DNA from: an uncultured Methanoregulaceae archaeon
GTDB taxonomy: Archaea > Halobacteriota > Methanomicrobia > Methanomicrobiales > Methanospirillaceae
Assembly (NCBI GenBank): GCA_963701095.1
Contig: OY969564.1
Coordinates: forward strand, 1,920,001-1,984,000
Length of the DNA stretch: 64,000 nt
Reading direction: 5' to 3'
Each line of letters opens with the position of its first letter. The stretch's first letter is position 1. A program made the position numbers. Positions 33,881 through 35,897 of this stretch are shown here, piece by piece.

Positions 33881-35897
33881 TCTGCGGCTGGATCACCTCC
33901 TAACGAATTTTATTTCGGGTTAAAGCGGTTACTGGACAAACTGTAAAATTGCCGGTGTCAACACATGAAGGCTCAAGTGCCAGATAAGGTGGCATTCCGG
34001 TCTGGGTTCGACTCCCAGGGAGCTGTTTAGATGCACCTCGAGATGTGAATCACGAGGGAAGGGCTGAAAGTCAAACCAATGACTTTGCGACGCCGTGTAA
34101 AGGTTTGCACTCAGGACGTTAAATGGGTTTAGCGGAGCATTAGTTTAAACCTACCAGTGGATGGCTCGGTTCAAGTGCCGAAGAAGGGCGTGCCAAGCTG
34201 CGATAAGCTCCGGGTAGACGCAAGGAATCTATGATCCGGAGATACCCTAATAGGACATCCTAACGCTTTATGCGTTTATCCGTAAGGATAGGGAACGCCC
34301 CGAATTGAAACATCTCAGTAGGGGCAGGAGAAGAAATCAACCGAGATGTCGTTAGTAGAGGCGATCGAACACGACAGAGCTCAAACCGAATCCCGCAAGG
34401 GAGATGTGGTGTTATAAGCCCACCGTTACGATACCGGATGTGAAGCGGAAGTTGCCTGGAATGGCATACTACAGAGGGTGATAGTCCCGTACGCATAAGC
34501 AGACGGCATCAGGTGGTGTCTTGAGTACCGCGGGTTGGAATTCTCGCGGGAATTTGGGGGTCATCAACCCCTAAAGCTAAATACAACTTGAAACCGATAG
34601 CGAAATAGTAGCGTGAGCGAAAGCTGAAAAGTAACCCTGAAAAGGTGGTTAAAAGTGCCTGAAATTGGTAGGTGATCGCGAGTTGCGGCATGAAAGGATC
34701 TTCCTTATGAAGGAACCCGTCGCGAGGCGGTAGTACGGGTAAGGTTGCCAGTGTCGCAACGTACGTTTTGAAGAACGGGCCAGAGAGTTTATTCTGTTGG
34801 CGAAGGTTAACCCACAAGGGGAGCCATAGGGAAACCAACAAGTCCGTAGCAGCAATGCATGGGACGACGTATTAAAAGTGCGTGGAGTCAGCAGGATAAG
34901 ACCCGAAGCCGGGTGATCTATGCGTTGGCAGGTTGAAGCGTGACGAAAGTTGCGTGGAGGACCGCAAGCGGTATTGATATGCAAATCATTCGTGTGACCT
35001 ACGTATAGGAGTGAAAGATTAATCGAACCCGGCATCAGCTGGTTCCTCCCTAAACATGTCGCAGCATGACCTAACCGGAGATCGTTGGTGAGGTAGAGCA
35101 CTGATTGGGGGAGCTGGGCGGGAAACTGCTCACCCCCCTGTCAAACTCCAAACTCCCCAACATCCTAGATGGTTGGAAGTCCGCATTACGGGGTAAGCTT
35201 GTAATGCGTAAGGGAAACAACCCAGACCGTGGTTAATGTCCCTCAATGTAGGCTCAGTGTAAACACTGAAATTGGTCCTAGGTCAAAGACAACTGGAAGG
35301 TGAGCTCAGAAGCGAGCTATCCTTTAAAAAGTGCGTAACAGCTTACCAGTCAAGATTTAGGGCGGTGAAAATGGACGGGGCTAAAGCCTACTACAGAGAC
35401 CACGGAGCACCGAAAGGTGATCTGGTAGGGAGGCGCTCTGCGTGGGTAGAAGCTGGGGCGTAAGTTCCAGTGGACCGCGTAGTGATGAGAATTCTGGCAG
35501 TAGTAGAAGCATAGTTGGGTGAGAATCCCAACCGCCGCAGGGGCTAGGTTTCCTCGGCAACGTTCGTCAGCCGAGGGTTAGTCGGTCCTAAGGTGCGTCG
35601 TAACTCGAACGTACCGAATGGGAAACAGGTTAATATTCCTGTACCATGTGGTTTTTAGTCGCAAGACCCTGACGCTTGGGGGTATGCTAAGCGGGACTGT
35701 CATCCCGTCCAAGCACATAACTCTGTGGAGTACCGTAATGGTGAGAATCAGAAGAAAGTGTGATGGGGTAACTTAGCAAATTCCCTGAGCCCATGAAAAG
35801 GGAATCACATGTCCGTACCGAGAACCGACACAGGTGCCCCTCGCTGAAGAGGTGTAGGCGTGTCGGATTTAATCGTAGTTAAGGGAACTCGGCAAAT

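Follow-up and report, generated by a model that had tools for sequence, protein, structure and literature searches.

A three-armed remnant of the spacer tRNA-Ala in the Methanoregula rRNA operon, under selection for its shape

We analyzed a 64,000-nt stretch of contig OY969564.1 from an uncultured Methanoregulaceae archaeon (contig positions 1,920,001 to 1,984,000, hereafter the window), which contains the only rRNA operon of this genome. The 16S-23S spacer of the operon is 233 nt long and harbors a 57-nt remnant of the spacer tRNA-Ala, the mini-tRNA element. The features of the locus are, in window coordinates:

32355-32395, + strand: processing stem, 16S leader side, with a bulge at 32370-32372 (from cofolding and the L106/L132 junction)
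32434-33901, + strand: 16S rRNA, single copy in the genome
33921-33962, + strand: processing stem, 16S trailer side, with a bulge at 33945-33947, ~22 nt upstream of the element
33969-34025, + strand: complete mini-tRNA element (57 nt), corresponding to tRNA positions 1-72; the 85 distinct relatives measure 51-61 nt
33969-33975, + strand: 5' strand of the acceptor stem (from sequence and pair counts)
33977-33995, + strand: middle hairpin, 5-bp core stem and 9-nt loop; 23 compensatory changes
33988-33989, + strand: conserved loop GG, putative equivalent of G18-G19 (84 of 85 distinct elements), predicted to dock on the T-loop
34002-34018, + strand: T arm, 5-bp stem and 7-nt T-loop; U54, C56, G57 and A58 invariant in 85/85
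34019-34025, + strand: 3' strand of the acceptor stem; C, not U, at position 70, and no CCA after it
34100-34140, + strand: processing stem, 23S leader side, with a bulge at 34121-34123
34135-37060, + strand: 23S rRNA
37059-37105, + strand: processing stem, 23S trailer side, with a bulge at 37080-37082
37145-37216, + strand: tRNA-Cys(GCA) of the operon (ARAGORN and Rfam)
37304-37425, + strand: 5S rRNA

Two similar promoter-like blocks are located upstream of the 16S gene (32092-32156 and 32230-32290). Each consists of a TATA-like box followed by a repeated leader start, which suggests tandem rRNA promoters.

ARAGORN and Rfam (RF00005) return no match in the spacer, and no cloverleaf is detected at the mini-tRNA element. 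Folding of the segment 33969-34025 gives an acceptor-like stem, a single hairpin and a T arm, and thus three helices instead of four arms. This agrees with the genome-wide survey's note, which had reported these three parts at 33970-34024; we place the ends at 33969/33970 and 34024/34025. The acceptor stem of the window copy has five pairs (2-6) flanked on either side by A·G mismatches, at 1:72 and 7:66. The middle hairpin has a stem that resembles the anticodon stem on both strands and a loop that resembles a D-loop. Across the relatives this loop is variable (6-11 nt) and ends in GG, and we find no 7-nt loop with U33 and UGC, in line with the anticodon loss described earlier. The folding energy of the element lies within the range of chance (z is -0.96, and 33 of 200 shuffles fold equally well), and the case for its structure is therefore a comparative one.

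Two contigs from metagenome collections (L106 and L132) contain promoter, leader, spacer, 23S trailer, tRNA-Cys and the start of 5S, with both rRNAs missing and the mini-tRNA element intact. Their joins coincide with the predicted bulge-helix-bulge cuts (window 32371|33947 and 34122|37082). We infer that both contigs were assembled from RNA and correspond to a doubly ligated leader-spacer-trailer-tRNA-Cys-5S product, although, as assemblies, they do not imply a single molecule with both junctions. A ligated spacer product has been described for other archaea (PMC7038931), in which splicing endonuclease and ligase release 16S and 23S in circular form (PMC7038931 and PMC10515664). If L106 and L132 are read as RNA, the mini-tRNA element is transcribed. 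It is intact where both rRNAs have been excised, so cutting it is not needed to release 16S and 23S. The element lies 67 nt after 16S ends and 109 nt before 23S begins, and defines no end of a neighboring mature RNA.

The region was matched in 46 of 108 genomes of the genus. The short form is present in 42 of the 43 readable archaeal Methanoregula spacers, a set that excludes a truncated spacer (G082), bacterial-type spacers (G031 and a second match in G075) and G041, which has the 23S side only. The 43rd spacer, that of G047, has a tRNA of full length; the operon groups within genus g14 and is thus probably misbinned. We reject G047, G031 and the second G075 match as Methanoregula spacers, as misbinned or bacterial. 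The short form is also found in G137, which is labeled as genus g10; its spacer falls within those of Methanoregula. In a metagenome scan with the anchor placed outside the element, 72 loci were found, 71 of them readable and all 71 short. The earlier statement that every readable Methanoregula spacer carries the mini form is therefore correct except for the probably misbinned G047, and extends to G137 and to the metagenome loci. In a flank tree calculated with the element masked, all short forms group in one clade (support 0.992), arguing for a single origin.

In the rest of the family, 38 of 38 readable spacers (from 34 genomes, two of which look misbinned) have a full-length tRNA. The claim that other genera keep the full-length gene thus stands for length, but the anticodon loop is altered in 5 of the 34 genomes. 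The 80 spacers obtained from 160 genomes of other families of the order comprise 77 with a full tRNA-Ala, 2 truncated ones and 1 chimera. Outside the order, a phylum sample of 261 genomes yielded 41 spacers, 39 with a full tRNA-Ala and 2 without a tRNA, and the short form is absent among these 41. An order-wide pattern based on the 16S end mostly matched unrelated sites and was set aside. The tRNA-less spacer of G290 (L186) was rejected as a chimeric assembly, its 16S side being 98% identical to its genus and its 23S side ~77%. More generally, the rRNA operons of L186 (G290), L043 (G047), L242 and L247 are chimeric or located in bins labeled as other taxa.

Several individual spacers stand out. 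L338 and L350, from multi-operon genomes of family f7, contain no tRNA at all, and a tRNA is found in another operon of G502. The spacer tRNA-Ala genes of L310, L321 and L343 (families f17 and f18) carry an intron in the anticodon loop. Five loci (L107, L124, L110, L136 and L123) show a still shorter form of ~47-50 nt, in which the linkers are nearly gone, the T stem is shortened and G1 pairs with C72; they belong to a sister subclade known only from metagenome contigs.

For the analysis of selection we used a main set of 85 distinct elements (51-61 nt) from 109 loci. Six loci were dropped, namely the five with the shorter form and L111, which has an imperfect hairpin. Eleven loci were re-registered by hand, and the hairpin register was chosen to maximize pairing. 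Parsimony on the flank tree counts 62 compensatory single-branch changes across the 85 elements (acceptor 10, hairpin 23, T stem 29), a number that is approximate given the pairing-maximized register and a partly poorly resolved tree, but far from the control, in which deranging the pairing partners gives a mean of 1.5 and a maximum of 9 (5000 trials). Changes on the same branch amount to 71, compared with a branch-weighted null mean of 22.7 and a maximum of 38. U54, C56, G57, A58 and the 52:62 pair show no change at all, whereas loop and linker columns change 11-36 times. When folded singly, only 59 of the 85 elements have a mean pair probability >0.5 in all three helices, and 1:72 is mismatched in 80 (A·G in 70). 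That the stems are kept by compensatory changes, as had been proposed from a smaller alignment, is thus borne out, and as judged from these comparisons the shape of the element is under selection. We rejected a eukaryote-type internal promoter or an integration site as readings of the element, because the compensatory changes point to RNA structure.

The hairpin loop had been called random. We find that a GG dinucleotide is present within the last three loop nucleotides in 84 of the 85 distinct elements, and in the 85th the GG straddles an open closing pair. Within-loop shuffles yield a mean of 20.5 and a maximum of 33 such elements, and the best other dinucleotide at any end-anchored loop position reaches 53/85. 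In 24 elements the base after the GG is T, A or C instead of G, and of the 23 elements whose hairpin 5' strand does not end in CC, 22 have the GG; the GG is thus not a by-product or slippage of a G-rich stem. The hairpin begins 0-3 nt after the acceptor strand, at the site where a D arm starts, and its GG is found 8-14 nt (mode 11) after position 7, compared with 10 nt before G18 in full-length spacer tRNAs. We infer that this GG pairs with U55 and C56 of the T-loop in the manner of G18 and G19. Because the GG is conserved at D-loop distance and opposite a nearly invariant T-loop, the element probably retains a tRNA elbow. The description of the element as D-arm-less is hence not confirmed. 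The remaining hairpin resembles a D-arm surrogate with a conserved GG, and it is the anticodon arm that is functionally lost, so that anticodon-arm-less is the better term. The hairpin may have originated by deletion of the D arm and remodeling of the remaining loop, or by one deletion that joined the D-loop to the 3' anticodon strand.

The G3·U70 pair is the alanine identity determinant of tRNA-Ala and is kept in the full-length spacer tRNAs that we examined in the family, in the order and outside the order. Position 70 is C in all 85 elements and U in none, and the 3:70 pair is G·C in 84 and A·C in one. The loss is not universal, as L107 and L124 of the dropped shorter form retain the G·U and a 1:72 pair. 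Compared with 12 full-length relatives, the 3' acceptor strand has 1-2 nt fewer, and the G3·U70 pair may thus have been deleted, not substituted, an event that may leave a 6-bp stem and a purine discriminator. The discriminator base is variable, and there is no conserved anticodon among the 85 elements.

Decoding had been assigned to a second tRNA-Ala(UGC) gene at 1850809, and we confirm this stand-alone gene at contig positions 1850809-1850880, 338 nt from tRNA-Ala(CGC). It has the D arm and most of the anticodon stem in common with tRNA-Ala(CGC) and not with the spacer type, which marks it, on sequence grounds, as a tRNA-Ala(CGC) duplicate in which the wobble base has changed. Among the matches listed, it is found in 39 of 43 short-form genomes and is missing from G009, G076, G083 and G088 (G076 also lacks the tRNA-Ala(CGC) neighbor). 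Again among the matches listed, it also occurs in genera whose spacer gene is still intact (g12 and g13, for example). The duplicate therefore predates the shrinkage of the spacer tRNA, with redundancy coming first. G166 (genus g15) and six genomes of other families contain, as far as found, only spacer-type UGC genes, all of them intact.

Full-length spacer tRNAs with altered anticodons are found elsewhere in the family. Those of G164 and G165 (genus g14; L064, L065, L082 and L083) and of L043 combine a UGU (Thr) anticodon with a G3·U70 acceptor and are called tRNA-Thr by ARAGORN; if matured and charged, they would put alanine at ACA codons. In genus g2, the spacer tRNA-Ala has an 8-nt anticodon loop in G118 (L057) and G120 (L058) and a ruined anticodon arm in G119 (L052), and is intact in G117. 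The altered spacer tRNAs of these five genomes (G164, G165, G118, G120 and G119) all keep the acceptor, the D-loop GG and the T arm. Decay of the spacer tRNA has begun elsewhere in the family as well, separately in genus g2.

A scan of the window's own genome for the T-arm motif outside tRNAs returned 25 other matches, which were inspected by eye; two look like 3' halves of intron-containing tRNA genes. The genome also contains a tRNA-Gly-like gene with a 6-nt anticodon loop (contig 2137141-2137209; '???' in ARAGORN), possibly due to a one-base assembly deletion, and two additional tRNA-Cys genes, as well as a second tRNA-Thr(UGU) of divergent sequence (contig 2002990-2003062, 2006724-2006795 and 2077533-2077608).

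RNase P and RNase Z recognize the acceptor stem, the T arm and the D/T elbow of their substrates rather than the anticodon. The feature set conserved in the mini-tRNA element is the set that these enzymes recognize, and we therefore favor the reading that the element is probably a substrate of RNase P and/or RNase Z, a putative cleavage signal in the rRNA precursor. The same recognition features, the anticodon not among them, are given in PMC12630138. In the scenario that we propose, a tRNA-Ala(CGC) duplicate with a UGC anticodon rendered the spacer gene redundant for decoding earlier in the family. In one clade, the D and anticodon arms then collapsed into one hairpin, with loss of the anticodon and of G3·U70, and selection holds the acceptor stem, hairpin stem, T stem, T-loop and loop GG. 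With the GG docked on U55/C56, the element would have a tRNA elbow at a distance of 11-12 bp from the acceptor-stem end. Its two ends would be cut by RNase P and/or RNase Z late, in the ligated leader-spacer-trailer RNA, which would open this RNA for turnover and free the tRNA-Cys/5S part. The released piece would not be charged with alanine.

RNase P RNA is present in the window's own genome, and a search there for a protein-only RNase P gave only a weak partial match below the cut-off. RNase Z is split into two frames (contig 873607-874489), which we take for a probable assembly frameshift because the gene is intact in 5/5 relatives. The mismatched 1:72 in 80 of 85 elements and the five acceptor pairs of the window copy suggest that the element may be a poor substrate for RNase P/Z. 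We also count against cleavage by these enzymes that there are working spacers without a tRNA (2 of the 41 sampled outside the order); PMC10515664 describes such spacers for Methanococcus maripaludis rrnA/rrnB.

A structural or timing element would be cut slowly or never, and would insulate the 16S and 23S stems or tether the precursors until 16S splicing licenses 23S splicing. We consider this unlikely, though worth weighing. It is consistent with the intact element in the doubly ligated L106 and L132, with the mismatched 1:72 and with the proposal by Juttner et al. of rate-limited processing of the internal tRNA and of a region affecting 23S stem folding (PMC7038931). A plain hairpin would insulate as well, however, and the kept T-loop bases and GG point to a factor that reads an elbow. 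We are more doubtful that the element is excised as a small RNA in its own right, for example as decoy or ligand of a tRNA-binding protein. Its size class and conserved features are those of mascRNA (PMC11693755), it would be co-transcribed with rRNA, and the loss of U70 in 85/85 could reflect selection against charging. Yet linkers, loop and stems vary freely in sequence. A mismatched acceptor end favors RNA decay, and so would that of an excised element.

It is highly improbable that the element is a decaying pseudogene whose structured look is inherited from tRNA. The gene has been redundant since the duplication, related genera show graded damage (5/34 genomes), and the folding energy does not exceed that of shuffles, all as expected from decay. 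This reading is largely refuted by the 62 compensatory changes, 23 of which fall in a hairpin that did not exist in this form in the ancestor, and it leaves unexplained why the T-loop and the GG stay invariant next to columns with as many as 36 changes, and why the length is kept at 51-61 nt in the main set. A functional truncated tRNA, charged and translating like the armless mitochondrial tRNAs, would share the three-arm layout and similar length, but we give it almost no credence with a variable loop of 6-11 nt and no conserved anticodon, an absent G3·U70, a mismatched 1:72 and a variable discriminator.

A tRNA-Ala between 16S and 23S is present in most Euryarchaeota, and a role for it in rRNA maturation has been left as a hypothesis in PMC7038931. 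The Methanoregula clade separates two possible jobs of this tRNA, as decoding has moved elsewhere and the shape is still under selection. The 85 natural variants of the element represent a minimal candidate RNase P/Z substrate and probably a new three-arm tRNA-elbow fold, and the route from a tRNA gene to a candidate processing signal can be traced, with partly decayed spacer tRNAs in neighboring genera. The element is invisible to standard tRNA annotation. We tentatively speculate that the euryarchaeal spacer tRNA might have a second, non-decoding job in ribosome biogenesis, for example as a timed RNase P/Z checkpoint coupling 16S and 23S maturation, which would be exposed by the three-arm elbow fold of Methanoregula, where a hairpin on the old anticodon stem replaces the D-arm.

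D-arm-less mitochondrial tRNA-Ser and other truncated tRNAs have a 7-nt anticodon loop, decode and have lost the elbow. The mini-tRNA element shares the three-arm layout and similar length of D-arm-less tRNA-Ser, but loses the anticodon and appears to keep the elbow. With the euryarchaeal spacer tRNA-Ala(UGC) it has in common its position and a homologous acceptor and T arm (PMC8339473 and PMC10515664), and the T stem of the window copy is identical to that of two g19 genomes. Missing relative to the spacer tRNA-Ala(UGC) are the anticodon, one arm, the G3·U70 pair and, in most copies, the pair at 1:72.

According to PMC4326828 and PMC3296008, t-elements are substrates of RNase P and tRNase Z, and the Haloferax volcanii t-element upstream of 5S rRNA (Holzle et al. 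2008) is cut by tRNase Z. Like this t-element, the mini-tRNA element is a non-decoding, tRNA-like structure inside an archaeal rRNA precursor, with an acceptor-like stem continuous with a T arm. In the same description, the Haloferax t-element abuts 5S and makes its mature 5' end, whereas the mini-tRNA element is located in the 16S-23S spacer, abuts no mature RNA and is visibly derived from the spacer tRNA-Ala, and its cleavage is putative. PMC11693755 describes mascRNA and menRNA as 57-58-nt tRNA mimics processed by RNase P and Z, and the elbow in mascRNA structures as formed by the T stem-loop and two D-loop guanines. The mini-tRNA element likewise keeps the T-loop and two loop guanines, at a spacing that makes the same contact plausible. 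From the same source, mascRNA and menRNA have four arms and are located on vertebrate long non-coding RNAs, whereas the archaeal element derives from a real tRNA gene and has three arms, one hairpin replacing the D and anticodon arms.

We also consulted PMC12918454 and bioRxiv 10.1101/2021.06.14.448286. Searches of the openly accessible literature listed no description of the mini-tRNA element, and it is real, under selection and apparently undescribed. It is not a member of the t-element or mascRNA class, as it defines no mature end and has three arms. Taken together, the mini-tRNA element is best placed among the tRNA-like processing elements as a variant, and what makes it notable is its descent from a genuine spacer tRNA gene.
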